This document shows positions 5,243 through 23,459 of a DNA stretch of 32,000 nucleotides, piece by piece; within the stretch, counting starts at the first letter, position 1; each line of letters opens with the position of its first letter. A program made the position numbers and the translations under genes. The notes under the pieces were generated by a model, which was not told where the DNA came from, did not search any database, and was given only the letters and a program-made list of their open reading frames with translations. The stretch is from Thioflavicoccus mobilis 8321 (lineage in GTDB: Bacteria > Pseudomonadota > Gammaproteobacteria > Chromatiales > Chromatiaceae): assembly GCF_000327045.1 (NCBI RefSeq), contig NC_019940.1:2954038-2986037 (forward strand). The letters run 5' to 3'.

Positions 5243-5322
5243 GGATTCATATCGCTGAAGCTGCGCCGATTCTCTATCCGGTTCGCACTCGGTGCCGAGC
5301 TGAAGGGTTGCAGCACGAAATA

Positions 5323-7417: not shown

Positions 7418-7648
7418 CCTGCTCAATCCTCCTCGGTGTTAGAGCCGAGCACCCCTCTTCTCACCTCGAGACGTGCCTTCGCTGAGAAGTCGAAACGGCT
7501 AAGGCGGTTACCGCCTGTATAACACGGACATCAGGCGTAGAAGCACAGTTTCTGCTCATGATTTGTATTTAGAAATCCTCGTATTGCACGTCGTGCGCCG
7601 GATCTTTGCCAGCCGCTAACATGTCGTATCGTCCGCCGCCACCCGCCC

Positions 7649-8602
7649 TCAGAAGGCCGCGAGGAACCGCTCGACGAACAGGTCGTAGTCGTCTTCTGCC
7701 AGGACATTGATCCCGGCTGCACCCTTGCGGCCTCCGCCGGTCGGGAACTGCCGACACAAGGCGTCGGCACCTTCTCCGGTGGCCCGTGGTGAGCGCACGC
7801 TCACGACGAACCCACCTTCCGGGCGCGGCGTCAGCAGGGCGTGGGCACGCTCCGGCGCACCCCCCGCCAACTCGTTGGCGAAGACCCCGCTGATGCGTCG
7901 TGCCCAGGCCTCGGCCGGTAGCAGATAGAGCGCATGTCCCTCGCCCTCGTACTCGGGTCTAAGTCGATGCGCCCGCGCCATGTCGTCGGCGAAGCCTGCG
8001 CTCAAGATCGAAAAGGCTTCGTCCTCGGCCATGAAGAGGAGCGGATCGACGAACCCTTGCATTCGCCGATAGAGGGCGTCCGGCGGAAAGTGCAGATCGG
8101 CAACCCGTTCGCCGTAACCGTTGTAGTTGAGACAGATGCCCAACTCGCGCAAACGCACCAGGTCCTCCTCCGCCAGATCGAGCGGGGCGGCTGCCGTGCG
8201 CGCCGCAGCCTCCATGCCGTCACCGAAGGCCCCGACGGCGGCCCAGGCGCGCCAGCGGCCCTCGAGCGCGACATCGACCAACAGGCTCGTGCACCGATCC
8301 GGTGCCGGATCGATATGGGCGGAGAGCCTCGGATGCGCTGGAATCTCGCCGGCATAATGGTGATCGAAATAGGCCACAGGCACGTCGCGGGCAAGCAGCG
8401 CGAGCAGCGGTTCGCGATTCTTGTCGAGCGAGACATCCAGCACGGTCACCGACCCGGCCGTCTCGACCTGTACCCGTTCGAGAAGGGCGATATCGCGCTT
8501 GACACCGGTCACGAGGACCGAATCGATGGCCTCGACCAGCCTCAGCTGATGAAGGGCGCAGAGCCCATCGGCATCGCCGTTGAATACATCATAGTGGGTC
8601 AT
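7649..8602 (-). CDS. DHH-family phosphoesterase-like protein (DHH + DHHA1-like)
   Basis: N-terminal 'DVFNGDADG' (DxD motif), 'FDHHY' (DHH motif) and C-terminal 'GGGRKGAAG'. The last is a DHHA1 GGGH-type motif with Arg in place of His. Confidence 0.65.
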   Translation of the reverse strand: MTHYDVFNGDADGLCALHQLRLVEAIDSVLVTGVKRDIALLERVQVETAGSVTVLDVSLDKNREPLLALLARDVPVAYFDHHYAGEIPAHPRLSAHIDPAPDRCTSLLVDVALEGRWRAWAAVGAFGDGMEAAARTAAAPLDLAEEDLVRLRELGICLNYNGYGERVADLHFPPDALYRRMQGFVDPLLFMAEDEAFSILSAGFADDMARAHRLRPEYEGEGHALYLLPAEAWARRISGVFANELAGGAPERAHALLTPRPEGGFVVSVRSPRATGEGADALCRQFPTGGGRKGAAGINVLAEDDYDLFVERFLAAF

Positions 8603-8984
8603 TTTCGGGGGTCGCTCCGCGTTGGGGTCTCATGGTCCGGCTACGTTCAGGATGAAAACCTCACGACCGACCGGGCATGCCATTCCAGCGCCGCCGGCCA
8701 TATGCAATAGACGCAGGGCGGCTCGTGGGGCGCCGGCGGCGAAACTCGCAAGACCACACGAAGGGCTGCGAGGTCACGAGCCCCACTCGATTCATCATCG
8801 GCGCCACGACAACGAGCATCCCCTTGTCCCATCCTGACAGCCGGCCGTAATCCGAACGAAATAGCCGCGCACAGAATACATCCGCAAATAAGAATTGTTG
8901 CTTTTTCGTTGGCGCTAAAACGATATGGTAGCCTTGTTACCTGCCGTCAAAGTGCAAGAACCGTTGTCTTCGCAGCCGCTCCGT

Positions 8985-9248
8985 ATGACGTCCGATCCCG
9001 ATATGCTCGTCCTCACGCTCAATGACTTCCCCCCGGCCGCCGGGTCCGTATCCGCGGCCTGAACGGTCAAGGCGCCGTACGTACGTCAGCGACTGATGGA
9101 TCTTGGCTTGCTACCCAATATCGAGGTCACCATCGTTCGCAGTGCGCCACTCGACGATCCGATCCAGATCATGCTGGACACCAACCACGTCACGCTGCGG
9201 CGCACCGAGGCAGCGGCCATCGAGGTATCGGAAGAAGGCCTCGCATAG
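8985..9248 (+). pseudogene. feoA: feoA-like gene interrupted by an in-frame TGA (9060..9062)
   Basis: One frame reads MTSDPDMLVLTLNDFPPAAGSVSAA*TVKAPYVRQRLMDLGLLPNIEVTIVRSAPLDDPIQIMLDTNHVTLRRTEAAAIEVSEEGLA. The part after the stop is a typical FeoA SH3-like core (RxxLxxLGLxPG...V...APLGDPI...LRR.EA..IEV). The stop falls inside the domain. There is no ATG/GTG/TTG between the TGA and the ATG at 9096. Confidence 0.6.
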
Positions 9249-9305
9249 AAGCCGAGTTTCCGCATACGCGCTACTGAGCGGCCCAATCCCGCCGAGGTCC
9301 ACGCC

Positions 9306-9497
9306 ATGAGCAGCGCGCCGACGACAGTCATCACGACAGAGCCGGCCGTGCCCGACATCTCGGCCGATCATCACTTCGGCTGGGCCGACCTCGCAGTGAC
9401 CGCCACCATCATCGCCGCCGCCGGCTACTACCTCTATCGCAAGCCTTGGCGCCAGCGGGACACCTGCCCCGAATGTAGCGACGACAAGGGTTGTTGA
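9306..9497 (+). CDS. Small membrane protein with a Cys-rich tail, resembling the 'FeoB-associated Cys-rich membrane protein' family
   Basis: 63 aa. A hydrophobic helix 'LAVTATIIAAAGYYLY' is followed by basic residues and 'CPECSDDKGC'. It lies 58 nt downstream of feoA, where feoB would normally sit. Confidence 0.45.
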   Translation: MSSAPTTVITTEPAVPDISADHHFGWADLAVTATIIAAAGYYLYRKPWRQRDTCPECSDDKGC

Positions 9498-9711
9498 GGC
9501 GCCGAAACGACGCGCGGCGCAACGGGGCGACGAGGCAGCACCTGCGGATCCCCAAGGCCGAGCGCCGGCCTTAGGATCCGCTTCGTCATCGCTGCCCGGC
9601 CTCGTTCCCGCCGAAATCCGGCCTCTGTCGGGAAGATCCAAGGGTTGATGCTCAACCCCCCATTCCCCACATTAATCTTAGACGCGAAAGGACCCAAGAA
9701 GATTTACAGGC

Positions 9712-9755: not shown

Positions 9756-10113
9756 GGGGGCGACTTGGCTTCGACGTGGGTCGCAAAACCTGAGGTGCAT
9801 GCCGAGGTGCGGATAACCTCGTAAAACCAGCCGCAAATCTATAGTTGCCAACGACGACAACTACGCTCTCGCTGCTTAATCCCAGCGGGCCTCTGGCCGT
9901 CGCTTGCCTGTGGGCGGCGGATTCCAGGGGTAACCTCACATAGGATCGCGGTGACGGGAGTCCGGACCTGATCCGCTAAAACCTCACGGAATCGCCGACC
10001 GATCGCCCTGCCCTTCGGGCGTTGGAAGGTTAAAAACAATAGAACGGGCTAAGCATGTAGGACCGAGGGCAGAGGGCTTGCGGACGCGGGTTCGATTCCC
10101 GCCGCCTCCACCA
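9756..10113 (+). ncRNA. ssrA: tmRNA (transfer-messenger RNA)
   Basis: The 5' GGGGGCG pairs with the 3' CGCCTCC-A-CCA, giving an acceptor stem with a G3:U70 wobble. A T-arm 'GGGTTCGATTCCC' is present. The internal tag frame at 9847..9879 (GCC AAC GAC GAC AAC TAC GCT CTC GCT GCT TAA) encodes ANDDNYALAA followed by a stop. Length is 358 nt. Confidence 0.95.
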
Positions 10114-10114
10114 A
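10100..10114 (+). repeat. attL-like direct repeat CGCCGCCTCCACCAA (the 3' end of ssrA)
   Basis: Exact 15-mer, repeated at 20996..21010. Confidence 0.75.
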
Positions 10115-10147
10115 TATTTTATTAATTAAATCATATAGTTATGATTA

Positions 10148-10179
10148 AGAAGGCCGCTCATTATGCGGCCTTTTTCTTT
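10148..10179 (+). terminator. Rho-independent terminator downstream of ssrA
   Basis: AAGGCCGC-tcattat-GCGGCCTT stem-loop followed by TTTTTCTTT, in an AT-rich stretch immediately after the tmRNA CCA end. Confidence 0.7.
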
Positions 10180-10217: not shown

Positions 10218-10469
10218 TCATTTACCTACCGACGCCGAATACCCGTGGCGGATAGCCGCTCGAGGAGGAGCCTCATCTAGGTTCAGTCCAAGACGGATGG
10301 CCGCGTCATCAAACGATGCCTCGCGGCCGGCCTCGAGATCGTTGAGACCGGCGGTAACAGCGCGGATGAAGTCGGCCCGCTCTTCGACGCCGCGCGGGAT
10401 CAAGTCGCCTGTGGCCGCAACGGTCGTTGCACTGCGCATGCTCGCGTCGTGTTCAGTTGGACTTGCCAT
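10218..10469 (-). CDS. Hypothetical small protein downstream of jetD (83 aa; coding status uncertain)
   Basis: ORF on the same strand, 75 nt after the jetD stop, with no obvious SD. The segment 'ADFIRAVTAGLNDLEAGREASFDD' loosely recalls C-terminal segments of small antitoxin/stability proteins, but I cannot assign a family. Confidence 0.3.
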   Translation of the reverse strand: MASPTEHDASMRSATTVAATGDLIPRGVEERADFIRAVTAGLNDLEAGREASFDDAAIRLGLNLDEAPPRAAIRHGYSASVGK

Positions 10470-10544: not shown

Positions 10545-11543
10545 TCACGAGGCCTCGCCGGGAGGTCCGGCGGCCAAAGCCCCCTCAAGAGCATCGGCCA
10601 TGCGCGGGTCTAGGGCGATGCGCTCCTGCTCGAGCCACAGTCCACGCGTAACAAGCTCACGAACCTGAGCCGGGGCGAAATCAAGGTTGAGGTCTTCGGG
10701 CCACCTGGTACGCAGCCCACCGGTGTTCGCAAGCTCGAACCAGAAGTCAGGTACTAACCACTTCAGGTGCGGTGCCCTCTCGCGCAAATGCAGCATGATG
10801 CGAACACCGTTCGGGTCTAAGTCGCCAAAGTGCACAACCGGGATCCCAGAGACGCGATCGAGCAAGTGTCCAACGGTGGCGGTGTCCCAGCCCGGCACGT
10901 GGGCCAGCAGCCAACCCGGTGGTGGACGTAGGTCACGCCATGCCCCCAGGTTCTCAACGAGGAGCACGGCACGAATAGCCCCCTCGAATACCAGACCGTC
11001 GAGCAAGGCTCGCTCCGGTATCGAGACCTCGCCTAGCACCGTCGCGATCCCGCTGAGGTCGACTGTTCCATTTGCCGTTCGAGCCGACAGCCGATCCGGC
11101 GGTCGCAACCTGATGGCCCCGTCATGAGAGGTGTCTGTCCCGCCGAGCGCACCCCTTCTGGCTTCGGTGAGCGATGCCTTGGAGTGCGATGCAGTGAGAG
11201 AGGCGGCGGTCCGCCGGTTAATTCGTTCCGGCAGCTCGGGGATCGCGGCCGCGCGTTCCATATCGAGCAGCCGGCCGTAGCCGTCGGGTGTTGGCGGCAG
11301 TCCCGCCGCCACAAGGTCCGCGAGTACGTCGCGCCACGCCGGCCAGACCCGGTCGATCAAGCCCGCAAGCTCCGTCCTGCGCTCCTCGACCACGCCGATC
11401 TCGTCACGGCGACCCGTGGCCCGTGTCCAAGAAAGCTCAGCAAGGGCGTCGTACGCCTCCAACTGAGTGCGTCGGCGCTTGAGGCTGCCACGTGAGAGCA
11501 GTTCCAATAATGCCAGGCGTGCGTTGTCGTTTTCCCAGATCAC
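10545..11543 (-). CDS. jetD: Wadjet JetD / MksG-like Toprim-domain nuclease subunit
   Basis: 332 aa. The C-terminal half carries Toprim-type acidic motifs: 'LLVENLGAW' (Glu197) and 'VHFGDLDPNGVRI' (Asp241-x-Asp243), spanning nt ~10815..10961. The GTG start overlaps the jetC stop (GTGA at 11540..11543). Confidence 0.82.
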   Translation of the reverse strand: MIWENDNARLALLELLSRGSLKRRRTQLEAYDALAELSWTRATGRRDEIGVVEERRTELAGLIDRVWPAWRDVLADLVAAGLPPTPDGYGRLLDMERAAAIPELPERINRRTAASLTASHSKASLTEARRGALGGTDTSHDGAIRLRPPDRLSARTANGTVDLSGIATVLGEVSIPERALLDGLVFEGAIRAVLLVENLGAWRDLRPPPGWLLAHVPGWDTATVGHLLDRVSGIPVVHFGDLDPNGVRIMLHLRERAPHLKWLVPDFWFELANTGGLRTRWPEDLNLDFAPAQVRELVTRGLWLEQERIALDPRMADALEGALAAGPPGEAS

Positions 11544-14500
11544 GCCTCGGCCCTCGTTCTTCGCCCGCTGACGAGCACCTCTTCGCGCCCGTCTGCATCG
11601 ACGCGCCGTACCAGGCGATAGGTGGTGTTACCTTCCGCTCTGGCGACCTCTGGCGCGGCGATGAGCAGCTGTAGGTCGAGTGTCTGGCATAGGTCGAAGA
11701 GAACGCCGAGGTTGTCGTGTGAAAGGCGGTTGGCCTCGTCGAGAAACAAAAAGCGGAGCGAACCGTGTGCTCGCTTCCCGCGCAGCAAATTCGCATCCCG
11801 TTCCCACTCGGTGAGCACTACCATCATCAAGGCAGCGCCAACGCCAATCGCCTCGCCGGTGGAGAGACGGGTCGGATTTGCAACCTCCCAGTCAGAACCT
11901 GCGGTACGGCGGACCTCCACCTGCAGGTGGACGTATTCACGATAATCCAGTAGCCGCTGGCCACCCGAGCGCCCGCCACCGTAGCGCCGAAAGATCTCGT
12001 CCAGGGCTTCCTCGATGGGGAGGTTTTCCTGAAAAAGAAGTCCCTGCACAGCACCTTCGCGCAGCGCTCGAAGCACCTGCTCCATGCGCTCCACCGACTG
12101 AACCTTCACCCGGATCCCTTCGATGCTGCCGAAGCTGACTCCACCCAGGTTCTGGTTGAGGCGGCTGACCTGGCCGCGTGCCTTGCGGATTTGAACGTCA
12201 ATGCCGCGGGCAACGTCCTCGCTGGCGCCACGCAGATCGTCCTCCTGTCGCTCAAGACGCTCTTCGAGCCCGGTCAGTTGATCGCGCAATCGCAGCAGCG
12301 CTTCTCGCGGGTCGTCCACTTCTGCCACCTGCGCCGGCAGCCGACGGCGCAACCAATCGCGCACCGCCAGCCAGAGCTCGAGGTAGACGTCGGCAAACCC
12401 GATGCCTTCCCCCTCCGCGTTCTTGTCGACCTTGGCGAGCAGATCCTGTGCCCCGTGAGCGGCTCGTAGCCGCTCCACGAGCACCGCCCTCTGCTTGTGT
12501 GCCTCCTGCACGAGATTAACGTGTCCGCGGATCCCGCTGACATCGCTGTTCCCGGAGGTAACGACGCTGGTGAGCAGATTCCGATCCGCTACAACCGCTC
12601 TCAGTCGCTCCCAGCGTTCAAGAGCCGGCTCAGCCTCGCGGCGTTCGACGGCAACCTTCTCTTCAGCCTCGCCGTACTCGCGAGCGGCTTGCGCCTGCTC
12701 GGCCTCGCGACGCCCCTTGGTGGTGTTCAGCTCATTGAGTTCCGCGGCGAGCACCGTCGCCTCTTCCTTCAATCGCTGCATCTCGTCATGCGCAGTCGCG
12801 ACTGCGGCTTCCGTGGGATCGGCGATCTCCATCTCCTTGAAGCGCCGCTCCGCAGCCCGAAGTTGTTCGACGGCAGCTCGGCGGCGACCATCGGCGTCCT
12901 GCCATTCGGCTGTGGCGCTCTCATACTCCTTGTCGGCAGCCTCAACCGCTACGTCCGCCTCGGAAAGCGCCTCTTCCGCCCGGCGCAGCTGTTCCTCGAG
13001 TGCGGGAACGAGCGACCGATTCGCTTCGAGCTGCGCTGGTGCGTCGTCCCAGCTCAGTGCCTCCGAGTTGCCCGCAACGAATTCCATGGCCTCGATTGCG
13101 GCATCCAACCGGTCGCGCTCATCCGAGAGGCGACTCAGCTCGGTTTCGAGAATCGCGACCTCCGCCTCCGAAAGCGGCGTTCGCCGCAGCGTGTCGAGCT
13201 TGTCCTCGACCACCCGGGCGGCTTCGCAGCAACGCTGAATCTCAGCCTGTGCCGCTTGGGCGGCATCGTGGTGCCGCTCGAGGTCGTCTCGCCGTTGCGC
13301 GTGGTCTGGAGGATCGAGCAACACAGCTGAACCGAGCAGACCGCGTAGCGCCTCAACACGTGGCGCAAGCTGGCGGGCCGCCTCCTGAAATCGGGTCATC
13401 GCGGCGCGGTGGTTCTCTTGTCGATCTTGGACCTCCGAGAGCTGACGACGAATCGCGGCTAGCACCGGTGCCGGGTCGCCGGCCAGCCACACGACCTGAC
13501 CTGCAAGCAGCGCTTCGCCATCCTCCGCCAGGCGCTCGAGCCTGCGTCGGCCCACTCGTGTGCTATCGATCTGAACATCCAGCGCATCAGCCTCAGCACG
13601 CAGCTCGGCGGCACGCTTCTCGCGCGCCTTCCGACCTAGGCGAGGACAAGTCGGAATCCGCGTGACGCGGATGGCCCGCTGCTCCGAAACGACGACATCG
13701 GTCAGTTCCTCGCTCTCGCGGGCCGCGCCCGCACCGAGTCGTGCAGTGTCCTCGTCGCGGCTTACGAACCACACATCGGAAAGCGAGTCCGGGCGGCCAT
13801 GGACCTGCTTGGCGGCTGTTGCCGGGTCATCCACGACCAGCGCCTGCACCAGCGGCCCCAGCCTCGCCTCCAGCACGGCGGCATCTTCGACAGACGCGTC
13901 CTCGAATGCACCGGCCAAGAGTTCCGCACCCAGGGCGTCCTTGAGTCGCAGCAGCTCCGTATCGAACGGCCCACCGGCGGCCAGGAGTTCTCGGGCCGCC
14001 GACTGGAGACTCTCCCGTCTCTCGACAAGCTCGGATTCGCTCGCCTTCACCTGGGTGAGATGCTGCACCACCATCTCGCGCGCGGCTTGAAGCTCCGGCA
14101 GCGAAGTTAGGGAGCACCCGAGTTCGGTCGCCAGGTGCTGGGCGCGCGTCGCGAGGTCGCGCCAGATCGGCTCGCGATCACCGAGCTCCTTTTGCCGCGC
14201 GCGCGCAGCGTCCAGCGTTCGCTGGCACTCAGCCAAATCCGCCTGGGCCTCGCGGGCTTGCTCGAGGCACCGCTCGCGCTCCTGTTCCGCCTGTTCGAGA
14301 TGCTCCGTGATCTCGATGCGGGCAGATCGCTGCCCCGAGAGGGAAAGGCTAAGTCTTTTGGCCTGCTCTCTGGCCTCGGCCTGGCGGCTGGCGAGCTTGC
14401 GGGCTTCGGCGAGTTCGGCCGCGATCGTGCTCAGACGCCCGGCCAGTGCCTCCAGATCCCGATACCGGCAAAGTTGTTGGCGGGCGGTCCCGTGGGCGGC

Positions 14501-15964
14501 GCCGGTTTCGACCGGCGCATCTGCCATCAGTTCCAGTGCCTCGAGCGCAGCCCGGTGCTCTCGCCTGTGCTCATCGGCATCAGCGAGCCGCTGCCTCGCG
14601 CCCCGCCGAGAGCGATCCACCTGATCGAGCTGAGCCCTGCTCGCGGCCACACGGCCAGCGATGGCTGCGATGGAAAGCTCGTCTTCTTCGAGTAGCCGCT
14701 CTGCCTCGCCCTTCCGACGGAGCACCTGCCTGTAAGCGCCAGCACGGCGGTGGAGTTCGTCGAGTCCGCGCTGGAGGTCTGCGAGGCCCACGCCGGCGCG
14801 CTTGTGATCGTCCCGACAGCGGTGCAGCGTTGCCCGGCAGCGGCTTCGGCTCTCCTCTCGCGCCTTGCGTTGACCCTCGGCAATCCGTGTATCGGCTTCG
14901 GCCGAAGACAGCTCTTCACGGCGGTGCGCGACTTTCTCGGCCGCCTGCAGAGCCTGCTGAAGACGCCGGAGCCAATCTTCGGCAGCGTTGACCTCCGCTG
15001 CGAGAGCCTCCTGGCGGGCGCCCTTCTTCCCGAGTTGATCGCGAACACGGGCGAGCTGATCCTCGGCCTCTGCAAGCTGCTCCTGTGCTTTGCGTTGTGC
15101 TTCCTCTGCCTCGGCCAAACGGCGTCGGAGTTCGTCTGCGCGCTCGCGGGTCGAGAGGAAGGCCGCGGCAAACATGGTCTGCCCGGCCTCGAAAACCCCG
15201 CCGATCTCACGTTCGAGCCGCTGCGCCTCCTGGACCTCGGTGCGCGTGCGTCTGCATGCATCGAGGTTGGCCTTCATGCGCTGCAGGGTGTCGGCCAGCC
15301 CGGTCTCTTCCTTCAACAAGAACGACCGCAACTCCGATGTCAGCGCCCGCGAGATGCCGCCCGTCATGCTGGTACGCAGCATCTCGTTGAGCTTGTTGCG
15401 CTCTTCGTCCGTTGCCAGGCGCAGCGGCGTCACACCGTGATCGAAAAGCGCGGCAAAGTAGTCGCGCGCGGTGCCGAAGATCTGCAAGCGCCCACCGAAG
15501 CGCGCGGCGTTCTCGCGCAGCTCATTGAGCTCGGGAACCACTTCGTGGTCACCCTGGGAGAGCAAGAGCACGTCTTGAAGGCGAACATCCGTGTCGAGCC
15601 CCGAGATGATGAAAGGCGTTGGCTCGACGGATGGCTCGCCCTTCCGGTCCAGGTGCACGCCGGCAATGAGGCACTGACCCGATGCGAGGGCGAATTCGAT
15701 CGCCGAGTAGGCAGGCCGGCCAGGCTCACCCAGGCGTCCCCAGATGCCTTTGTCACCGCCCGTCGCGCCCGTCTCCCCGAGATTCGTGAAACGCAGCCGG
15801 GACATGTCCGGGAGGAGCACGACGTAGGCCGCGATCATCACCGTTGTCTTGCCGGCTCCATTGGCCCCCTCGAGGGCCGTCACATGCCGGTCGATGAGAT
15901 AGCGCTCGTAGAAGACGCCCTTCCAGTTGACGAGCACGAGGGTCTGGGCGTGGGTACGGCTCAT
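11540..15964 (-). CDS. jetC: MukB-like SMC ATPase (Wadjet JetC / MksB)
   Basis: 1474 aa. The N-terminus has MukB-like character, 'LVLVNWKGVFYERYLIDRHVTALEGANGAGKTT' (Walker A, nt 15842..15868). About 1000 aa of Ala/Glu/Arg/Leu/Gln-rich coiled coil follow. The C-terminal head carries the 'LSTGE' signature and 'FLFLDEA' Walker B (nt 11735..11866). The ATG overlaps the jetB stop (ATGA). Confidence 0.93.
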   Translation of the reverse strand: MSRTHAQTLVLVNWKGVFYERYLIDRHVTALEGANGAGKTTVMIAAYVVLLPDMSRLRFTNLGETGATGGDKGIWGRLGEPGRPAYSAIEFALASGQCLIAGVHLDRKGEPSVEPTPFIISGLDTDVRLQDVLLLSQGDHEVVPELNELRENAARFGGRLQIFGTARDYFAALFDHGVTPLRLATDEERNKLNEMLRTSMTGGISRALTSELRSFLLKEETGLADTLQRMKANLDACRRTRTEVQEAQRLEREIGGVFEAGQTMFAAAFLSTRERADELRRRLAEAEEAQRKAQEQLAEAEDQLARVRDQLGKKGARQEALAAEVNAAEDWLRRLQQALQAAEKVAHRREELSSAEADTRIAEGQRKAREESRSRCRATLHRCRDDHKRAGVGLADLQRGLDELHRRAGAYRQVLRRKGEAERLLEEDELSIAAIAGRVAASRAQLDQVDRSRRGARQRLADADEHRREHRAALEALELMADAPVETGAAHGTARQQLCRYRDLEALAGRLSTIAAELAEARKLASRQAEAREQAKRLSLSLSGQRSARIEITEHLEQAEQERERCLEQAREAQADLAECQRTLDAARARQKELGDREPIWRDLATRAQHLATELGCSLTSLPELQAAREMVVQHLTQVKASESELVERRESLQSAARELLAAGGPFDTELLRLKDALGAELLAGAFEDASVEDAAVLEARLGPLVQALVVDDPATAAKQVHGRPDSLSDVWFVSRDEDTARLGAGAARESEELTDVVVSEQRAIRVTRIPTCPRLGRKAREKRAAELRAEADALDVQIDSTRVGRRRLERLAEDGEALLAGQVVWLAGDPAPVLAAIRRQLSEVQDRQENHRAAMTRFQEAARQLAPRVEALRGLLGSAVLLDPPDHAQRRDDLERHHDAAQAAQAEIQRCCEAARVVEDKLDTLRRTPLSEAEVAILETELSRLSDERDRLDAAIEAMEFVAGNSEALSWDDAPAQLEANRSLVPALEEQLRRAEEALSEADVAVEAADKEYESATAEWQDADGRRRAAVEQLRAAERRFKEMEIADPTEAAVATAHDEMQRLKEEATVLAAELNELNTTKGRREAEQAQAAREYGEAEEKVAVERREAEPALERWERLRAVVADRNLLTSVVTSGNSDVSGIRGHVNLVQEAHKQRAVLVERLRAAHGAQDLLAKVDKNAEGEGIGFADVYLELWLAVRDWLRRRLPAQVAEVDDPREALLRLRDQLTGLEERLERQEDDLRGASEDVARGIDVQIRKARGQVSRLNQNLGGVSFGSIEGIRVKVQSVERMEQVLRALREGAVQGLLFQENLPIEEALDEIFRRYGGGRSGGQRLLDYREYVHLQVEVRRTAGSDWEVANPTRLSTGEAIGVGAALMMVVLTEWERDANLLRGKRAHGSLRFLFLDEANRLSHDNLGVLFDLCQTLDLQLLIAAPEVARAEGNTTYRLVRRVDADGREEVLVSGRRTRAEA

Positions 15965-16677
15965 CTGTCAGCCTCCTCCTCGTCGTCCTCGGCTCCATGA
16001 CCGTCGCTGCCGTCGTTTTCGTCCTCTTCGTCAGCGTCGTCTCTCTCGACGGCTTCGCCGAGGACGATCTCACCGCTCCGGACCAGCCGTTCCAGCGCGG
16101 CTTGCCGGTCGCTCAGGTCGCGGACTGGCTCGGCGAATCGCATCAATGCGGGACGTAGGCGTAGCATCGCGTCGTCGACCGAATCGATGAACCCGAGGTC
16201 CGTCAGGCGCCGAAGGGCCTCGGCGACCTTGGTGCGGACGGTCTCGGCGGCTATCCGTTCATCGAACTTCCTGCGCCGTGGATTGAGGGTGCGGACCAGC
16301 GCTTCCGTCCCCAACAAACCAGATAGCCTCTGCAGAAGCGTCTCGCGCTCGACCATGCCCCCGTGCTGCAAGGTGGCGGGATCCAGGTACATCAGCGCGA
16401 GGGTCTGGCCGACGAGCATCTCGCCCGCGGTCAATTGGCGACGGCCGAGTCGATCCCCCGAAGGCAGCAGGTAGAAGTACCCGTCCGCCCGCTGCATCAG
16501 CTCACAGCCGAACCGCCGATAGAAGGGCTCGAGGTGGTCGAGGGCATCGACGAGGTAGTCATAGGCGGTGCCATCGTCGCGCCCGACGTGCCGACCGCAA
16601 CGAAGGGCGAGGTCCACCTCGGGAAAGTGCTCGTCGCTGACGGCCTCTTCGAGGGACTGAAAGCTGGAGGTGGTCAC
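15961..16677 (-). CDS. jetB: MukE-like subunit (Wadjet JetB / MksE) with an acidic C-terminal tail
   Basis: 'LALRCGRHVGRDDGTAYDYLVDALDHLEPFYRRFGCELMQRADGYFYLLP...MLVGQTLALMYLDP' is colinear with MukE as I recall it. The tail is 'ERDDADEEDENDGSDGHGAEDDEEEADR'. The track start at 16743 would overlap jetA by 70 nt. I use the GTG at 16677, which overlaps the jetA stop (GTGA) and follows a GAGGGAGGGAGAG SD. Confidence 0.88.
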   Translation of the reverse strand: MTTSSFQSLEEAVSDEHFPEVDLALRCGRHVGRDDGTAYDYLVDALDHLEPFYRRFGCELMQRADGYFYLLPSGDRLGRRQLTAGEMLVGQTLALMYLDPATLQHGGMVERETLLQRLSGLLGTEALVRTLNPRRRKFDERIAAETVRTKVAEALRRLTDLGFIDSVDDAMLRLRPALMRFAEPVRDLSDRQAALERLVRSGEIVLGEAVERDDADEEDENDGSDGHGAEDDEEEADR

Positions 16678-17978
16678 CGTCGCTCTCCCTCCCTCGGCAG
16701 TTCCCAGTCCTCCACTTCCAGGCGTGGCGCAACGGTACGCCACAGACGCTCAATCGCGCTGCGTGGCGAGGTGATGCGCGCGAGCACGTCGGCCACACGG
16801 CCTGTGACGGCGTAACGAAGATCAGCGGGAAACTGTGGTAACACCCACTCGGTCACCTCGGCCAGGGATCGAGCGCCCGCGGCCAGCGCGTCTTCCACCA
16901 ATGTCTCCATATTCAGGCCGGCATCTTCCGGATCGACAAGATCAGGCGAGCCCTCCCGGTCCGTACGTGGTCTCATGACAGCTGGCCGCTCAACTCGTGA
17001 TTCGAGGGGACGGAGCAGCCGGATTGAAAGTGCCGCCGCCACGAGCAAGTGGAACGGTGTCGACGGCCAGTTCGCGACCTGGTCGCGCAGCCGCTGACTC
17101 AACGCTCGGTCCGGGTCAAGGCGTACGACATCGCGAAGATAGCGATGAACGTATTGGTAATATTCCGACCACGCGCGCTGCCGGGCGCCGCCCCAGGCCG
17201 CTATGCGATCGACGTGCTCGATGACGCGTTGCACCGCCTCTTCGGGCTCGGCCTGGTCCGCCTCGGAGGCCAAGGCCTGAATCTCTTGCAGCAGCGCGAC
17301 GAAGTGATGGGTGTCGCGGAGTAGGACCTCGTTGAGTTCCCGCAGCGTATTGGTAGTCGTGTCGAGCAGCGACTGGCATCGATCGACGGCACCGAACCAA
17401 TCCACCTGCAGGAGTTTGGCGATCTCTGCCTGCACCTCTTCCTGTTGTGAATCGAGTCCCCGCTGCCGGCGCTCAATGCCGCCGACAAGATCGCCAACGG
17501 TTACCCGCAGGGGAGCCACCACATGCTCCCGCCAGGCATCCGCGGTGTCAGCACGCCTGGCTGCCGCGAGGATCTCGGCAAGCTGAGCCCGAAGCGTGCC
17601 CGTGAGTAGGGTCAAGCTCTCGCGTGTGAGTGCTTCATCGGCGATGAAGTACTCGACGACTGCGGCCGCCAGTCGCGTCAGCGTGTACTCACCCGATCGA
17701 ACGATGCCCGCGCCGTCCACTCGGACCAGCATGCGCTGGTCGCGGAGTCGTTGGATGGCGTGGGTCGCTCGCTTGCGTGGACGCTCCGCACCCGGGTCTA
17801 CCACGTCGCATACCTGTTCGAACATGTCGATCAGCACGTCTTCTTCGAACGACGCGAGGGACGCCCGGTCGGCCCGCAGGTATAGGCCGGCAAGAAAACA
17901 CAGGTCGAGCGTTTTCAGATCGAGATTGATCTGATCTCGTGCGAGTGCAGCAATGAGGCGGCTAGGGTCCGATGGCAT
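16674..17978 (-). CDS. jetA: MukF-like kleisin subunit (Wadjet JetA / MksF)
   Basis: 'RATHAIQRLRDQRMLVRV...YTLTRLAAAVVEYF', 'EIAKLLQVDWFGAVDRCQSLLDTTTNTLRELNEVL' and 'AWSEYYQYVHRYLRDVVRLDPDRALSQRLRDQV' are colinear with MukF as I recall it (wHTH, middle helical region, linker). The ATG at 17978 sits 6 nt after an AGGAG SD and shares one nucleotide with the abiEii stop (TGATG). Confidence 0.88.
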   Translation of the reverse strand: MPSDPSRLIAALARDQINLDLKTLDLCFLAGLYLRADRASLASFEEDVLIDMFEQVCDVVDPGAERPRKRATHAIQRLRDQRMLVRVDGAGIVRSGEYTLTRLAAAVVEYFIADEALTRESLTLLTGTLRAQLAEILAAARRADTADAWREHVVAPLRVTVGDLVGGIERRQRGLDSQQEEVQAEIAKLLQVDWFGAVDRCQSLLDTTTNTLRELNEVLLRDTHHFVALLQEIQALASEADQAEPEEAVQRVIEHVDRIAAWGGARQRAWSEYYQYVHRYLRDVVRLDPDRALSQRLRDQVANWPSTPFHLLVAAALSIRLLRPLESRVERPAVMRPRTDREGSPDLVDPEDAGLNMETLVEDALAAGARSLAEVTEWVLPQFPADLRYAVTGRVADVLARITSPRSAIERLWRTVAPRLEVEDWELPREGERR

Positions 17979-18853
17979 CAATCGCTCCTGCCGAGCTTCG
18001 CTGCGGCGATGGCGTGAGGCATGAGGAATCGGGCAACACCTTCGATCACCTCAGGTAGGCTGCCGGGACGAAGCGCCACGTTCTCCAGAAAAGCACTCCA
18101 CTGACGCCGCTTCTGCTCATCCTCGGCAAAGGCCGGCGTAAGGGCATCCGGCAGGTCCGCCGGGATCTCGGTCTCGCGCCGTTCGAAGGTCGCGGCGATT
18201 GCGCGGGCAAGCCGGTTGTCGTCGAACGGAAACGACTGGCTGAGGAGCCAAATGTCATAGAAGTCCTTCATTCGGCTGTTCGCGCGCCCAAGCGCCACCA
18301 TTGCCTGGAATTTCTCGGCAATCACCGTTTCGCGGGCGTAGGCGCGCAGGCGAGGTGCGGGAAGGTCCAGCATGCACGGGTAGTCGATGACCTCGGCACC
18401 CGGCTCCAACGCGTCTCCGAATGCGACGTCGACTGTTACAGCGATACGGGCACCACTGATCGATGCGGTCGTGCGCAGCCGCAGTCCGCCGTACTCGAAC
18501 TCCTCCCGGATCAGGTCGACACGTACCGCGTTCGAATCGAATTCGACGCCATCCTCGACGTCGATCGCGAGAATCTCCTGGAATGCTGCAGCCATCGCCT
18601 CCGGGCTTGGATCGCCGAATCCCAACAGGTCGAGATCACGCGTAGCCCGGTGTGGATCCGTAAACCAGCTCGTCAGCAGCATCGCGCCCTTGAGCACGAA
18701 TCGGTCGGAGAAGGCCGACGTGCTGAGACGGTAAAGCAGGCGTTCCAACGCATAGCGGGTGAGTATCAGCTCGAAACTCTGTCCCGTTTCTCGAGAGAGA
18801 TTCTGCAGACGCGCCCGAACGGAGGCGCCGACGTTTCTGATCTCCCTAGGCAT
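17978..18853 (-). CDS. abiEii: AbiEii/AbiGii-family nucleotidyltransferase toxin (DUF1814)
   Basis: 291 aa. The N-terminal NTase core 'FVLKGAMLL...HRATRDLDLLG' has a DxD at nt 18629..18637. Later segments 'TVIAEKFQAMVALGRANSRMKDFYDIW' are typical of the family. It is paired with an AbiEi-like gene upstream, overlapping it by 8 nt. Confidence 0.87.
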   Translation of the reverse strand: MPREIRNVGASVRARLQNLSRETGQSFELILTRYALERLLYRLSTSAFSDRFVLKGAMLLTSWFTDPHRATRDLDLLGFGDPSPEAMAAAFQEILAIDVEDGVEFDSNAVRVDLIREEFEYGGLRLRTTASISGARIAVTVDVAFGDALEPGAEVIDYPCMLDLPAPRLRAYARETVIAEKFQAMVALGRANSRMKDFYDIWLLSQSFPFDDNRLARAIAATFERRETEIPADLPDALTPAFAEDEQKRRQWSAFLENVALRPGSLPEVIEGVARFLMPHAIAAAKLGRSD

Positions 18854-19463
18854 TGGCGGTCAGTGCCTCGAGATACGGCCGCACGACTGTGGATACCCCG
18901 CCCTTCTCGGCTTGACGAGCAATTTCCGCCGGAGTCGCCTTGCGTTGCCTCAGCGCCTCCTGGAGGCCCTCGATCGCGACGGACAGGCCCACTTTGCCGC
19001 GATGTCGGAAGCAATCGGCCACCGTCTTGGCCACGCCGAAGACTTTCACCGACACGCCTTCGATCACGTGTGTTTCGATGCCCTCCCTCAGCAGGCTGTC
19101 TGTGAAACGCACAATGCGGATGCCCGCACCGCTGCGCTGCGGCGCCCAGTCCTTGGGTCCGATCGCCATCCAGACTTTCGGCGGTAGCTGGTCGGTCAGA
19201 CCGTGGAATGCCAACGCCGAGACGAGACATACGATGCCCTTGGGCACCCGCTTCGCGGCCTCCGCCAGGCTGTGATTGGGGTCGAGGTCGGCATCTGGCA
19301 GCTGATAGACGCCCCGCGACAGGCGGATGACTTCGCCGGCCCGCTCCATACGACTCATGGTCGCCGCGGTCACGCCGGCCTCGCGCAGCTCGAGCAGGCG
19401 CATGATTCCCTGCTTCTTCAGCAGGTTTTGGGCGAGCTCACGCTGCGCTCGGGGCTTTGCCAT
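18846..19463 (-). CDS. abiEi: AbiEi-family antitoxin / transcriptional autorepressor (type IV TA)
   Basis: 205 aa. N-terminal wHTH-like 'GIMRLLELREAGVTAATMSRMERAGEVIRLSRGVYQL', followed by 'CLVSALAFHGLTDQLP' and the characteristic C-terminal domain. It lies directly upstream of abiEii. Confidence 0.87.
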   Translation of the reverse strand: MAKPRAQRELAQNLLKKQGIMRLLELREAGVTAATMSRMERAGEVIRLSRGVYQLPDADLDPNHSLAEAAKRVPKGIVCLVSALAFHGLTDQLPPKVWMAIGPKDWAPQRSGAGIRIVRFTDSLLREGIETHVIEGVSVKVFGVAKTVADCFRHRGKVGLSVAIEGLQEALRQRKATPAEIARQAEKGGVSTVVRPYLEALTANA

Positions 19464-19512
19464 TGATACAAATACTTTATGTGTAGACCCTGAGTACCGA
19501 GGATTTGTATCA
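19464..19512. promoter_or_regulatory. Perfect 10-bp inverted repeat TGATACAAAT-(29 nt)-ATTTGTATCA abutting the abiEi start codon; candidate AbiEi operator or 5'-UTR hairpin
   Basis: Arms at 19464..19473 and 19503..19512, within the AT-rich divergent region between abiEi and the 406-aa gene. There is no SD between the left arm and the ATG at 19463. Confidence 0.45.
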
Positions 19513-19663
19513 TTTATCCGCGCGACGCGCCACCTGAACGACCACTGGCCGGCGGATGTGGGATCAATCGAGCACCGTGACAGAGGAATAAGACACAGAC
19601 CAGGTACCGCCCTCGCTGACTGACAGCAGCGAGGGCCCGGTCAGTCGAGAAGCGCTTTACGAG

Positions 19664-20884
19664 ATGGTCTGGTCCGAGCCCATGCTCCGGGTGGCGGCCC
19701 GGTTCGGCGTCTCGTCCAGCTACATGGCCCGCGTCTGCACGCTGCTCAACGTACCGCGGCCTGAGCGCGGCTACTGGGCGAAGCTGGCTATCGGCAAAGC
19801 GCCGAAGCAACCGCCGCTCCCCGAACCGCGTCCGGGCGACCCGCTCGAGTGGACGCGGGACGGAGCCCTACCGAAGCGGGCCCGGTCCCTCCCGAAGCCG
19901 CCCGACCAGCGGCCACGAGGGAAGCGCACGGTAAAGCGGCAGCTTCCGGATCGGCATCCACTGGTCAGCGGAGCCAAGCCGCTCTTCGAGGCAGGTCGTC
20001 TCTCCTGGCACGGCAAATACCTCAAGCCGGCCAAAAAACTGCTCGTCGACCTGCCAGTCACCCAGACCGGGTTGGACAAGGCGATCGCCTTTGCGAACGA
20101 GCTCTTCCTGGCGCTGGAAGCCAGGGACCATCGCGTGGTCATCGCGCCCAATTCGGAGCGATTCCACAGGGCAAAGGTCGACGAGCGGGAGAATCCCGGG
20201 AAAGGCCACCACCATCACGATCTGTGGTCACCGATGCGCTGCACCGTGGTCTACATCGGCACCGTGGCAATCGGCCTCACCGTCATCGAGATGTCCGAGG
20301 AAGCTGAGGCCCGCTACGTGAACGGCGAGTACGTTCGGCTGACCGACTACGTGCCCAAGCGCCGTGGCCGGTACGTTCACGACCATGGCTGGACGAGCAC
20401 CCACGACTTCCCGACCGGGCGCCGCTGTCTCCAGGCTTACTCGCCGTACCCGCGGGCAGATTGGACCCAGCAATGGCGAGAGACACCGTCCCGGGACCTG
20501 TCCGGCAGGATCCCATCCATTGTTCGGGAGCTGGAGAAGGCCACGGTCGAAATCGCGCGGCTCGTCGAGAAGGGGGAGCGCCAGGCGGAGATCGAACGCC
20601 AGCGTTGGGAGGCTCAGCGCGAACAGTGGCGTCGCGAAGAGGAGGCGCGGCAGGCCGCGAAGGCGTTGAAGGACAGCAAAGAGGAACTGCTCCAGGTCAT
20701 CGATGCCTGGGCGGAAGCCAAGCGACTCGAGGAGCTCTTCGCCGACGCCGAACGCCGGGCGCAGGATTTACCTGACGAGCAACGGGAGCGCACAATGGAG
20801 CGAATTCGACGGGCGCGCACCCTGATCGGAAGCACCGATGCGCTGGAGCGATTCGGCGCGTGGCGAGCGCCGGAAGAGCGATAA
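19664..20884 (+). CDS. Hypothetical protein (N-terminal HTH-like segment, His-rich middle, Glu/Arg-rich coiled-coil C-terminus)
   Basis: 406-aa ORF with host-like codon bias. Segments include 'VWSEPMLRVAARFGVSSSYMARVCTLLNVPRPERGYWAK', 'GKGHHHHDLW' and 'ERQAEIERQRWEAQREQWRREEEARQAAKAL'. The frame stays open upstream to 19592 but contains no ATG/GTG/TTG there. Confidence 0.65.
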   Translation: MVWSEPMLRVAARFGVSSSYMARVCTLLNVPRPERGYWAKLAIGKAPKQPPLPEPRPGDPLEWTRDGALPKRARSLPKPPDQRPRGKRTVKRQLPDRHPLVSGAKPLFEAGRLSWHGKYLKPAKKLLVDLPVTQTGLDKAIAFANELFLALEARDHRVVIAPNSERFHRAKVDERENPGKGHHHHDLWSPMRCTVVYIGTVAIGLTVIEMSEEAEARYVNGEYVRLTDYVPKRRGRYVHDHGWTSTHDFPTGRRCLQAYSPYPRADWTQQWRETPSRDLSGRIPSIVRELEKATVEIARLVEKGERQAEIERQRWEAQREQWRREEEARQAAKALKDSKEELLQVIDAWAEAKRLEELFADAERRAQDLPDEQRERTMERIRRARTLIGSTDALERFGAWRAPEER

Positions 20885-20995
20885 AATCTGCCTGAATCTG
20901 GCCAAAAAGCCAGACGAAGTGATCTGGGGGTATCTATGGGGGCATTTCTGGCGTTTAGCAGCGCAACGTATTGATTTATAGAGCGATGTGAAGGT

Positions 20996-21010
20996 CGCCG
21001 CCTCCACCAA
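20996..21010 (+). repeat. attR-like direct repeat CGCCGCCTCCACCAA
   Basis: Exact copy of ssrA 3' end nt 10100..10114, located 112 nt after the last island ORF. Confidence 0.75.
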
Positions 21011-21029
21011 ATCAATCAATCCCTGAATT

Positions 21030-21068
21030 CTGTCCTTTCCCCACATGTTCAGTGCGGGGAAAGGACAG
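21030..21068. terminator. 13-bp perfect stem-loop (CTGTCCTTTCCCC / GGGGAAAGGACAG); candidate terminator for the convergent diguanylate cyclase gene and possibly the ancestral ssrA terminator
   Basis: Arms at 21030..21042 and 21056..21068 with a 13-nt loop. It lies 48 nt downstream of the stop of the minus-strand GGDEF gene and 20 nt after attR. Neither side has a canonical U-tract. Confidence 0.4.
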
Positions 21069-21115: not shown

Positions 21116-22711
21116 TCAATGATGAGGGTGGCCCGTCGAGACTGTCACGCGGCCCTTGCCCTCTGTCTTAGAGATGTACATGGCCTCGTCGGCGAGTCGG
21201 ACTAGCTCTCCGAGGCGTTTGGCGTGGTCCGGATAAACGGCCACGCCGATGCTCGCCCCGACTCGGAATCCCGACCAGCTCCAGGCGGCGATTCGTGCGC
21301 GGAGCTTCTCGGCAATCGCCACCGCGGTCTGCACATCCGGGACGTCGGCGAGCATGACGACAAACTCGTCGCCGCCGTAGCGCCCGACGGCATCGCCCTT
21401 GCGGCTGTTTCTGGTGAGCGTGTCGGCGACGTCCTTCAGGACCTGGTCGCCCATGTGGTGACCCAGCTGGTCGTTGATCGCCTTGAACCCGTCGAGGTCG
21501 ATGTAGAGGAGCGCGAAGCGGTGCTCGTGGCGCCAGCGCCCGGCACGCTCGTGCTCCTGCGCCAGCTGCTCCTCGAACGCGGCGCGGTTGGCGATGCCGG
21601 TCAGCGTGTCGACCTGGGCGCGGCGCTCGAGCTGGGTGCGGCGGATCCGGCGCGCGTTCTGGTCGATGAGGATCTTCTGGTAGGCGGCGGCCAGCAGCAT
21701 GACGACGAAGATCCCGATGCTGGCGATCACGACGAGGGCCTTTATCCGCATCGCCTCGAGCTGCGCCTGCGGCAGATGGACGACGAAGTACCAGCGGTGA
21801 CCCCCGTGCCCGTGGAGCGCTTCGGGGTCGCCCGTCGCCTCGGCAATCGGGTGATACTGTGGCTTCAGCGGGTCGCTGTCGAAGAAGGTGAACAGGCCGT
21901 CCTCGGTGTAGAGGTGGCCGGCCTCGGCCTGCTGCATCGCCGCCCAGACGGCTGGATAGAGGATCCCCATCCGCTGGTCCTCGTGGCCCGGGAACATGAA
22001 GCCCCACGCGCGGCCCGGGTCAGCGGAGAGGAGCCAGTAGCCCTCCCTGTTCAACATCATCGTCTCGCCGGGCGCATGGGCCATGGCCGTCTTGGCGATG
22101 TCGAGGAGGATCTGTCCCAGGTAGTCGACGATGACGATGCCGCGCTTGCGCCCTTGCGCGTCGAACAGCGGCGTACCGAGGTGGATCACCGGCTTGTAGG
22201 GCCGCTCGACCTCGCCGCGCTCGATATTGAGGTCCATCGGCGTGACGCAGACCTCGCCGTAGCCATGGGCCATGGTATCGGCGAAATAGGGGCGGCCGCT
22301 CTTGTCCTGGAGCTCGGCCTCGGGCACGACGCTCGGGTCGCCGTCATTGAAGTTGACCCGCACGAGCTCCTTGCCCTGCGCATCGATGAAGTGGAGGTCA
22401 TCGTAGGTGCGGGCATAGCGGGCGACGTTCAGGTACTCGCGGGCGATCTGCCCGAGCAGGCGCCGGTCGCCGGTCGCGAGGTAATTGGTGAGCTCGTTCT
22501 GGTCGCGCAGCATCAGGGTGACGGCGGCGATGCCGTTCAGCCGCCGCGCCGTCGCCACGGCGGCCGCCTCGACGGCGGTGTGCTGGTCCCGCTCCAGGTC
22601 CCTATGGATCTCCGCTATGCCCCAGCGGTAGGCTAGGGCGAACAGCACGATTGGGAAGATCGCGAGGAACGGGAAAGTCTTCCAGAACTGGATCCAGAGC
22701 GCTCTATCCAT
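21116..22711 (-). CDS. Sensor diguanylate cyclase (TM - periplasmic Cache-like domain - TM - GGDEF)
   Basis: 531 aa. There is an N-terminal TM helix ('FPFLAIFPIVLFALAY'), a ~280-aa extracytoplasmic domain and a second TM helix ('ALVVIASIGIFVVMLLAAAY'). The GGDEF domain carries 'GRYGGDEFVVML' and an RxxD I-site ('RKGD') five residues upstream. Confidence 0.88.
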   Translation of the reverse strand: MDRALWIQFWKTFPFLAIFPIVLFALAYRWGIAEIHRDLERDQHTAVEAAAVATARRLNGIAAVTLMLRDQNELTNYLATGDRRLLGQIAREYLNVARYARTYDDLHFIDAQGKELVRVNFNDGDPSVVPEAELQDKSGRPYFADTMAHGYGEVCVTPMDLNIERGEVERPYKPVIHLGTPLFDAQGRKRGIVIVDYLGQILLDIAKTAMAHAPGETMMLNREGYWLLSADPGRAWGFMFPGHEDQRMGILYPAVWAAMQQAEAGHLYTEDGLFTFFDSDPLKPQYHPIAEATGDPEALHGHGGHRWYFVVHLPQAQLEAMRIKALVVIASIGIFVVMLLAAAYQKILIDQNARRIRRTQLERRAQVDTLTGIANRAAFEEQLAQEHERAGRWRHEHRFALLYIDLDGFKAINDQLGHHMGDQVLKDVADTLTRNSRKGDAVGRYGGDEFVVMLADVPDVQTAVAIAEKLRARIAAWSWSGFRVGASIGVAVYPDHAKRLGELVRLADEAMYISKTEGKGRVTVSTGHPHH

Positions 22712-23459
22712 CGGGCTGACTCCAGCTGCGTATCCACGCCTCCCTACTATAGACCCGATCGGCGAAAAGGTCAGTGTGCCCTCGACTCTTCCTCGCCGCC
22801 TTTGCAGACAACAGGCTGCGCTCGACAGCTCGGCACGGCTTGCTCTGATCGGGAAGCTTCACGCTGTCAGTCCTGACAATCAGCCCTTTCTGCACACCCG
22901 TTTCCTCGTCGGCGAGGCCCCTCACGCCTTACAAAGCGATCATCCTAGAAACGGCAGTTGACCGCTTCGCTATCGATTAAAGTCGTTGAAATTGGATCAA
23001 ATCTTTGCGCGACTCGCGTTCACCGGCTGGGTGAAGAGCGCCACGACTCCCCGAGGCACGCCCCGCGCGGCGCCCGACGGTGTTACAACGCGTTGCAATC
23101 GCTTGGCTATTGCGCCTCCTCGTGCCTTGCCGGACACCCCGCGCGACGCACCTCGGAGGTCGTCCAACTGCCGCTTCTAGGATCATCGCTCGCTGGGGCT
23201 ATGTAGACCTGACGCGCAAACAGGGCATCTCGGTCGCCACGGCCAAGAGGGATCTTGCAGCAGTCGGTCGGGCAGCTTGCTGCCGGGACACCAGTCCAAG
23301 CGAGATGTGGGAATCTACGATCACGCTGAGACCGCTCGGCCCCGGCTCGTCCGCATGTGGACCAAACGCCAGCGCGACGACCAGATCGTAGGACACATGG
23401 TGAACCCGATCGGCGGCAATCCCAAGAAACGTCAAGGACCAAGATAGCGAGGCGCAATC

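Follow-up and report, generated by a model that had tools for sequence, protein, structure and literature searches.

The 32,000-nt stretch of the Thioflavicoccus mobilis 8321 genome analysed here (NC_019940.1, positions 2,954,038 to 2,986,037; hereafter the window, in whose numbering coordinates are given) carries six co-directional genes on its minus strand at 10545–19463, in which an AbiE toxin-antitoxin (TA) pair is followed without a gap by a four-gene cassette encoding an SMC complex and a nuclease. The listing of open reading frames (ORFs) and direct reading of the strand place an overlap at each junction (8, 1, 4, 4 and 4 nt). abiEi (18846–19463) and abiEii (17978–18853) share the 8 nt ATGCCTAG, and the abiEii stop codon has one base in common with the ATG of the mukF-like kleisin gene (TGATG, 17976–17980), whose Shine-Dalgarno sequence, AGGAG, lies 8 nt upstream within the last 15 nt of abiEii. 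The remaining junctions are 4-nt overlaps: GTGA at 16674–16677 between the kleisin and KITE genes, where the mukE-like start is preceded by the Shine-Dalgarno sequence GGGAGGGAG, ATGA at 15961–15964 between the KITE and SMC genes, and GTGA at 11540–11543 between the SMC and nuclease genes.

We looked for signals that might divide the array. A consensus scan of the minus strand from 10545 to 19463 returned no sigma-70-like site, in a host of 64% GC whose promoter type may differ, and the 8 terminator-like sites found there are at chance level, 7.4 being expected from shuffling. The lowest-GC 40-nt segment within the six genes is 40% GC, compared with 35% for the stretch abutting the abiEi ATG. 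The original prediction, made from the sequence alone, had described the same coordinates, a gapless array with every junction overlapping, and no promoter-like, AT-rich or hairpin stretch inside it, all of which we could confirm.

By their sequences the first two genes are clearly an AbiEi/AbiEii pair, as had been proposed. abiEi encodes a 205-aa antitoxin and autorepressor with an N-terminal winged helix (Pfam AbiEi_4, E = 7e-8, residues 9–56) that is matched over its full length by PADLOC (E = 4.8e-87, residues 5–202). abiEii encodes a 291-aa DUF1814 nucleotidyltransferase toxin (Pfam AbiEii PF08843, E = 1.1e-52; PADLOC, E = 5.3e-124, full length), in whose translation nucleotidyltransferase-like motifs, KGA...RDLDLL, can be picked out by eye. 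Abutting the abiEi ATG on the minus strand is a putative operator/promoter (19464–19512), the lowest-GC stretch of the operon region, which consists of a 13-nt inverted repeat with arms at 19464–19476 and 19500–19512 (TGATACAAAT.. and ..ATTTGTATCA) that are 23 nt apart; the distal arm may hold a TGn-extended −10-like element, TGATACAAA. The repeat is identical in all AbiE-positive loci and in AbiE loci unlinked to muk. In Streptococcus agalactiae, AbiEi represses its own promoter by binding inverted repeats that span −35 to +1 (PMC3985639). The hallmarks of AbiE, namely a COG5340-type AbiEi, a DUF1814 AbiEii, an antitoxin gene that comes first and overlaps the toxin gene, and promoter inverted repeats, are all present, and we regard this first module as a predicted ordinary AbiE type IV TA/abortive-infection pair with its own inverted-repeat operator. 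Upstream control can plausibly lie only in 19464–19663, in agreement with the earlier proposal.

The four genes that follow encode proteins closest to MukF, MukE, MukB and the JetD/MksG nuclease. The kleisin gene (16674–17978, 434 aa) matches Pfam MukF_M (1.3e-25) and KicB (9.9e-10) and is 29% identical to E. coli MukF, and MukF chains are its sole matches in the PDB, but it scores below the NCBIfam MukF cutoff (385.6 bits vs 407). The KITE subunit (15961–16677, 238 aa from the GTG at 16677) matches MukE (2.3e-35) and MksE (5.8e-35) about equally in Pfam, is 32% identical to E. coli MukE and likewise falls below its NCBIfam cutoff (119 vs 250). The SMC ATPase (11540–15964, 1474 aa) matches the Pfam MukB N-terminal (3.7e-91) and hinge (4.6e-51) domains as well as Walker B, passes the NCBIfam MukB equivalog cutoff over its full length (1090 bits vs 699), and retrieves only MukB from the PDB (E = 2.7e-106). 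Identity of the three proteins to their E. coli counterparts is 26–39%. The last gene (10545–11543, 332 aa) encodes a Toprim nuclease that matches Pfam JetD_C above cutoff (E = 4.5e-9) and PADLOC JetD1 (5e-6). Its AlphaFold model, confident in the C-terminal half (pLDDT 82–93), has Corynebacterium glutamicum MksG (8b7f, E = 2.4e-8) as the top Foldseek match, then topo VI-A, then P. aeruginosa JetD (7til, E = 2.4e-5), and in an alignment its acidic residues E197 (VENLG) and D241/D243 (GDLDPNG) are invariant across 30 homologues.

Several lines of evidence place this cassette in the Wadjet/MksBEFG group. An SMC ATPase, a kleisin and a KITE protein occur together, and the adjoining Toprim nuclease has catalytic acidic residues, yet the type I–III JetA/JetB/JetC/JetD models of defence-system finders do not recognise the system: PADLOC JetA and JetB models gave 0 matches to the kleisin and KITE proteins, and the JetC and JetD matches are weak (JetC1, 3.8e-18, partial; JetD1). 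Nor does it conform to canonical MukBEF, in that MukB alone of the three reaches its NCBIfam cutoff and that the coupled JetD-like gene, island setting and patchy cross-phylum spread are not those of a nuclease-free housekeeping condensin. Bürmann et al. 2025 assign MukBEF to the Wadjet/Mks group, as a member without MksG/JetD, and list in their Data S1 an operon of Sorangium cellulosum So ce56 as FEBG; this operon is among our loci (L030), with 74% MukF identity. In their MksB tree the So ce56 protein groups with FEBG operons of P. aeruginosa NCMG1179, So0157-2, Massilia, Sulfurifustis and Plasticicumulans, and that group is sister to the MukB proteins of Endozoicomonas and E. coli with a bootstrap of 100. 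On this basis the second module is predicted to be an SMC complex of the sister clade of canonical MukBEF that retained the MksG/JetD Toprim nuclease, and to belong, as a class assigned by sequence, to the Wadjet/MksBEFG functional group of circular-plasmid restriction systems. We considered presenting a MukBEF with a nuclease as new in itself and rejected this, since the clade is already in the catalogue and tree of Bürmann et al. 2025. The name Wadjet, used when the locus was first described, is correct in the broad Wadjet/Mks-group sense, given the FEBG arrangement and the JetD/MksG nuclease, but the genes then called jetA, jetB and jetC are mukF-, mukE- and mukB-like.

Two observations concern relatives of this cassette. 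On Burkholderia pyrrocinia pBPJTT (NZ_CP091309.1, 76461–83855; L168) the four genes are labelled by RefSeq/PGAP as hypothetical protein, 'chromosome partition protein MukE', 'chromosome partition protein MukB' and 'DUF2220 domain-containing protein', and adjoin SAVED, WYL, ThiF and MPN (CBASS-like) genes; probably a defence system has here been given the name of a housekeeping condensin. Further away, MukFEB relatives with 50–57% MukF identity, mostly from Polyangiaceae (L054, L055, L057, L058, L060–L062, L064–L066, L071, L072 and L081), have no JetD-like gene after mukB that tblastn could find; a myxobacterial sub-clade may have lost the nuclease, or another gene may occupy the fourth position.

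To see how widely the AbiE–mukF junction occurs, we surveyed relatives of MukF in one genome per species, which yielded 80 loci from many phyla, and sought abiE beside them by tblastn. AbiEi and AbiEii lie directly upstream of mukF only where MukF identity is at least 90% (L002–L007, L010–L012 and L024, with the identical Logan contig L001), and a metagenome scan based on AbiEii added the linked loci L088, L090 and L093. The abiEii/mukF junction is thus found in at least 13 other loci, at 85–95% nucleotide identity, and the adjacency is not unique to this genome; uniqueness was what the original prediction had named as an outcome that would speak against it. The junction sequence GGCAGGAGCGATTGATG is kept in 12 of the 13 other AbiE-positive loci; in the remaining one, L007, ACG replaces ATG, and a TTG 3 nt upstream is usable and retains the overlap. 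Identity at third codon positions is ~0.85 in abiE and in mukF alike, which fits co-inheritance, the two modules appearing to have diverged in parallel. No excess of synonymous-site conservation is seen at the abiEii 3′ end (0.80–0.86 vs 0.84–0.91 elsewhere). In a neighbour-joining tree of mukF, all AbiE-positive and remnant-bearing loci fall in one clade, and abiEii fossils reach loci down to ~85% MukF identity; cassettes with MukF identity of 82% or less show no AbiE trace and have upstream genes that include HsdR, AAA_13, NOV_C, HNH, Fic-like and SAVED/CBASS. The cassette itself occurs at 70–97% identity across Gammaproteobacteria, Betaproteobacteria, Myxococcota, Binatia, Planctomycetota and others, a spread that indicates horizontal transfer. 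The AbiE-positive carriers that these surveys returned are all metagenome-assembled genomes, while cultured strains with AbiE-less versions include P. aeruginosa NCMG1179, Stutzerimonas stutzeri TS44, Pseudomonas ulcerans 147P, S. cellulosum So ce56 and B. pyrrocinia LWK2 (pBPJTT). Taken together, the pattern points to one joining in the ancestor of a single shallow, horizontally spreading lineage, followed by co-inheritance and repeated loss in both directions.

These losses form a natural deletion series. In L009 two internal segments of abiE are deleted and the promoter/operator is kept. In L015 the deletion took nearly all of abiEi–abiEii and most of the divergent upstream gene (ORF406, described below), and what remains is the intergenic promoter and an in-frame 40-codon ORF, fusing the AbiEi N terminus to the AbiEii C terminus, that ends at a TGA overlapping the mukF ATG. 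Elsewhere less survives: 5′ and 3′ remnants of abiE in L008, the last 100–110 nt of abiEii alone in L014 and L018, ~30 nt of abiEii in L017, a degenerate C-terminal trace in L019 and TGATG alone in L013. AbiE has been lost or has decayed at least 5 times independently within the clade, and muk–jetD is confirmed as full-length in L009, L014, L017 and L018. Loss has also run the other way. In L084 and L085/86 a 20–100-nt mukF 5′ stub stands directly after TGATG, indicating that the Muk cassette was lost at least 2 times from behind AbiE, and the same AbiE lineage also stands alone at 91–93% identity. Because AbiE is repeatedly lost with muk–jetD intact, and AbiE relatives stand alone or before other cargo, AbiE is best regarded as a separable module and not as a dedicated Wadjet regulator. 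At L085 (5876–9553) and L086 (1370–5053) a PLD-SNF2 helicase and a WYL regulator come after the AbiE pair (83% AbiEii identity) and a 32-codon mukF 5′ stub, as if one defence cargo had been exchanged for another behind an unchanged AbiE head.

We think that the array is probably an AbiEi-limited six-gene operon built from these two separable modules. Since the joining, a single, translationally coupled mRNA for the six genes would be made from the abiE promoter, and AbiEi autorepression would thereby limit how much of a potentially self-harmful nuclease-SMC machine is produced; AbiE would go on serving in abortive infection and island stabilisation, as it usually does. Read-through is supported by the gapless genes, the lack of any internal signal, and a conserved junction in which no conserved element is embedded. 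It is supported also by L009 and L015, which kept the promoter/operator and the coupling at the mukF start when AbiE was destroyed. The gating of muk–jetD by AbiEi is what we infer from this arrangement.

Other observations weigh against this reading. L013, L014, L017 and L018 lost AbiE together with its promoter, making four losses, and L014, L017 and L018 retain full-length MukB and JetD (in L013 neither is confirmable). The cassette can therefore be expressed otherwise, from other promoters, possibly within the abiEii remnant; in L018 a scan found candidate promoters upstream of that remnant. Cassettes with 70–82% MukF identity have unrelated upstream genes and upstream spacers of their own. 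AbiEii relatives that are 78–93% identical often stand alone or before other cargo (L082/83, L084, L085/86, L087, L089 and L091), and of the 56 informative loci in which AbiEii identity is below 80%, none is linked to muk. The confinement of AbiE–muk linkage to one shallow lineage weakens the case further, and the −10/−35 elements of abiE can be assigned only tentatively. Of the original prediction that expression is read through from, and so gated by, the AbiEi-controlled promoter, the read-through part has gained from the conserved junction, the co-divergence and the promoter retention in L009 and L015, and the proposal as a whole is tempered by the four losses that included the promoter and by the single shallow lineage.

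The simplest competing account is that the packing is an accident, in which AbiE merely neighbours muk–jetD, the cassette has its own promoter, whether in the last ~100 nt of abiEii or at another place, and is unaffected by AbiEi. Stop/start overlaps are frequent in high-GC operons, distant cassettes have other neighbours (HsdR, AAA_13, NOV_C, HNH, SAVED/CBASS), and of the four loci without the abiE promoter three keep 30–110 nt of the abiEii 3′ end with full-length MukB and JetD. Yet the place where such a promoter is proposed to lie has neither raised synonymous-site conservation nor a promoter-like match above shuffled expectation, either in the window abiEii 3′ end or in the L014, L017 and L018 remnants, where terminator-like sites too stay at chance level (a weak negative, coming from consensus scans); the candidate new promoters of L018 lie upstream of its remnant; and L015 and L009 retained specifically the abiE promoter on destruction of AbiE. 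We consider this account possible but doubtful.

A stronger form of AbiEi control, in which AbiEi acts as an on/off switch of the MukBEF-clade SMC nuclease, would keep restriction near-silent until an invader titrates or destabilises AbiEi and so derepresses the nuclease together with the AbiEii toxin. We judge this improbable, although, if true, it would amount to a TA-gated, inducible Wadjet with a built-in abortive fail-safe, and a deletion of the L015 type would be a constitutive mutant.

Partnership at the protein level, with AbiE as sensor, fail-safe or effector, for instance through AbiEii toxicity freed when the SMC nuclease is inhibited or triggered, is very unlikely. At least 14 loci share the fused junction and the co-divergence, and the association has lasted long enough for abiEii fossils to be left down to ~85% MukF identity, but AbiE was lost or decayed on at least 5 occasions with muk–jetD confirmed full-length in four such loci, the Muk cassette was lost at least 2 times behind AbiE, the same AbiE lineage occurs alone at 91–93% identity, and more distant cassettes are never found with AbiE; in the sequences nothing points to such a partnership. 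Finally, that this is a chromosome-partition MukBEF condensin with an unrelated DUF2220 neighbour, and not a defence system, is scarcely credible. The NCBIfam MukB equivalog is indeed above cutoff, and homologues go by 'chromosome partition protein MukB/MukE' in RefSeq; but MukF and MukE miss their cutoffs, the three proteins are only 26–39% identical to those of E. coli, the cassette is island-borne, next to tmRNA or tRNA genes, and has spread horizontally across phyla, its Toprim nuclease gene is translationally coupled and co-conserved, its neighbours are defence genes, and the literature defines MukBEF as lacking MksG/JetD.

The array, now in the favoured reading an AbiEi-limited operon, belongs with the divergent ORF406 to a small mobile island unit of ~10.8 kb inserted beside ssrA, the gene for transfer-messenger RNA (tmRNA). 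ssrA (9756–10113, plus strand; ARAGORN; Rfam, 232.7 bits; tag ANDDNYALAA) is convergent with jetD and marks the core-genome edge of the island; 3′ of it come a 12%-GC junction (10112–10151) and the ssrA terminator hairpin (10150–10172). A tmRNA gene or 3′ fragment adjoins the cassette or AbiE in L008, L009, L011, L014, L043, L091 (where the abiEii end is ~35 nt from the fragment) and L098, and its recurrence in several unrelated genomes suggests that insertion is targeted to ssrA; other loci sit near tRNA genes. No att direct repeat of the tmRNA 3′ end was found within the window, and no integrase or recombinase in the unit, which agrees with the earlier description of an island that lacks an integrase. 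No phage matched by megablast, and the sole close plasmid match, an 880-kb Burkholderia replicon, is without AbiE. A scan for RNA elements of the Rfam type returned the tmRNA alone. Between jetD and the tmRNA terminator, 75 nt downstream of jetD, lies an 83-codon minus-strand ORF (10218–10469) with no family match and no conservation in L011 or L014, which may be island junk or a small orphan gene.

At its other end the unit is bounded by ORF406 (19664–20884, plus strand), an unnamed gene that is divergent from the array, forms the far end of a conserved ~10.4-kb unit and accompanies AbiE in many loci, being 90–94% identical in L003–5, L010, L011 and L088 and 87% in L090. Homology to any related locus ends at ~20884 and the sequence at 20881–21048 is AT-rich, which would place the right island border just past ORF406. 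Beyond ORF406 the content differs by locus: type I restriction-modification genes, a group II intron reverse transcriptase, an IS5-like element or housekeeping genes.

ORF406 has no match in Pfam, PADLOC, NCBIfam or PHROGs and no fold match in the PDB. Its family is widespread, with 1542 homologues, most of 435–448 aa, and is without a Pfam domain. As modelled by AlphaFold, a close homologue of full length (P0247) has a helical, DNA-binding-like segment at its N terminus (motif RPERGYWAK), then a beta-rich middle part and a C-terminal helix of ~90 residues. In the upstream frame of the window copy (19514–19663) a TAA at 19589–19591 stands in place of a Gln codon of the relatives, so that this copy can start only at 19664, short of ~29–42 N-terminal residues. 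Between the abiE operator and the start of ORF406 is a perfect 10-nt inverted repeat (19609–19636; GCCCTCGCTG and CAGCGAGGGC around an 8-nt loop), in a region that in relatives is within the N-terminal coding extension of ORF406. A plus-strand promoter-like site found by scanning (19484–19513) overlaps the abiE operator, and AbiEi might for this reason act on ORF406 too.

The window flanks, 1–9700 and 21116–32000, have nothing in common with any related locus. The left flank carries a methylcitrate-cycle (prp) cluster, with prpD, a citrate synthase-like gene, a phosphoenolpyruvate mutase/isocitrate lyase-like gene, a GntR regulator and an acyl-CoA synthetase; on the right a GGDEF diguanylate cyclase comes first and GC content climbs to 70–76% beyond ~24000.

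Compared with Wadjet/MksBEFG (JetABCD), the cassette likewise runs from kleisin through KITE and SMC ATPase to Toprim nuclease in four co-directional, overlapping genes, its nuclease model is nearest to those of C. glutamicum MksG and P. aeruginosa JetD, and an orthologous So ce56 operon is already catalogued as FEBG. It departs from that group in an SMC protein of MukB size (1474 aa) with a MukB-type hinge, in a short JetD (332 aa), in the lack of a PADLOC JetA or JetB match, and in being headed by an AbiE pair. With canonical E. coli MukBEF it shares the closest sequence family for all three SMC-complex proteins, as its sister clade, and the same gene order with all junctions overlapping; in contrast to that Enterobacterales-like core gene set, it is 26–39% identical, has a nuclease, is island-borne and has spread horizontally. 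The E. coli muk operon, too, begins with an unrelated gene, cmoM (smtA), which overlaps mukF by 4 nt. In E. coli K-12 (L169, 973537–980786) mukF and mukE overlap by 20 nt and mukE and mukB by 1 nt, a layout with a foreign head gene as in the window. A nuclease-bearing sister clade of MukBEF is useful for the hypothesis that a Wadjet-like defence system, on losing its nuclease, gave rise to MukBEF. It also exposes an annotation pitfall, as defence-system finders are likely to miss the cassette and RefSeq labels its members as chromosome partition genes.

The AbiE module resembles those of S. agalactiae and Lactococcus lactis in its COG5340-type AbiEi and DUF1814 AbiEii, overlapping genes, inverted repeats immediately upstream, and residence on mobile elements that AbiE stabilises. 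The S. agalactiae system is described as bicistronic, whereas here four more genes follow without a gap, and its operator has a 23-3-23 arrangement in place of the 13-nt repeat with 23-nt spacing in the window. Both modules, the principle of a TA-repressed defence operon and the Muk–JetD clade are already known, and the AbiE-headed combination is the variant; our literature search found no paper describing an AbiE-headed Wadjet/Mks operon of any Wadjet type, in line with the original prediction that the fused architecture is undescribed for Wadjet. How dangerous SMC nucleases are restrained is poorly understood, and a TA autorepressor accompanied by a natural deletion series offers a testable model, to which Pez-Ham of Streptococcus is so far the sole comparable case. 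There, a Hachiman operon begins with PezAT, which keeps down expression of the defence genes and is not itself needed for defence, with fitness cost traded against protection (PMC13064477). Pez-Ham involves a type II epsilon/zeta TA and another defence system, and it has been tested experimentally, unlike the AbiE–Muk coupling, which is predicted from sequence; as in the window, the union of a TA module with a nuclease-containing defence system is confined to one sub-lineage, and its mechanism is the one that we infer here.

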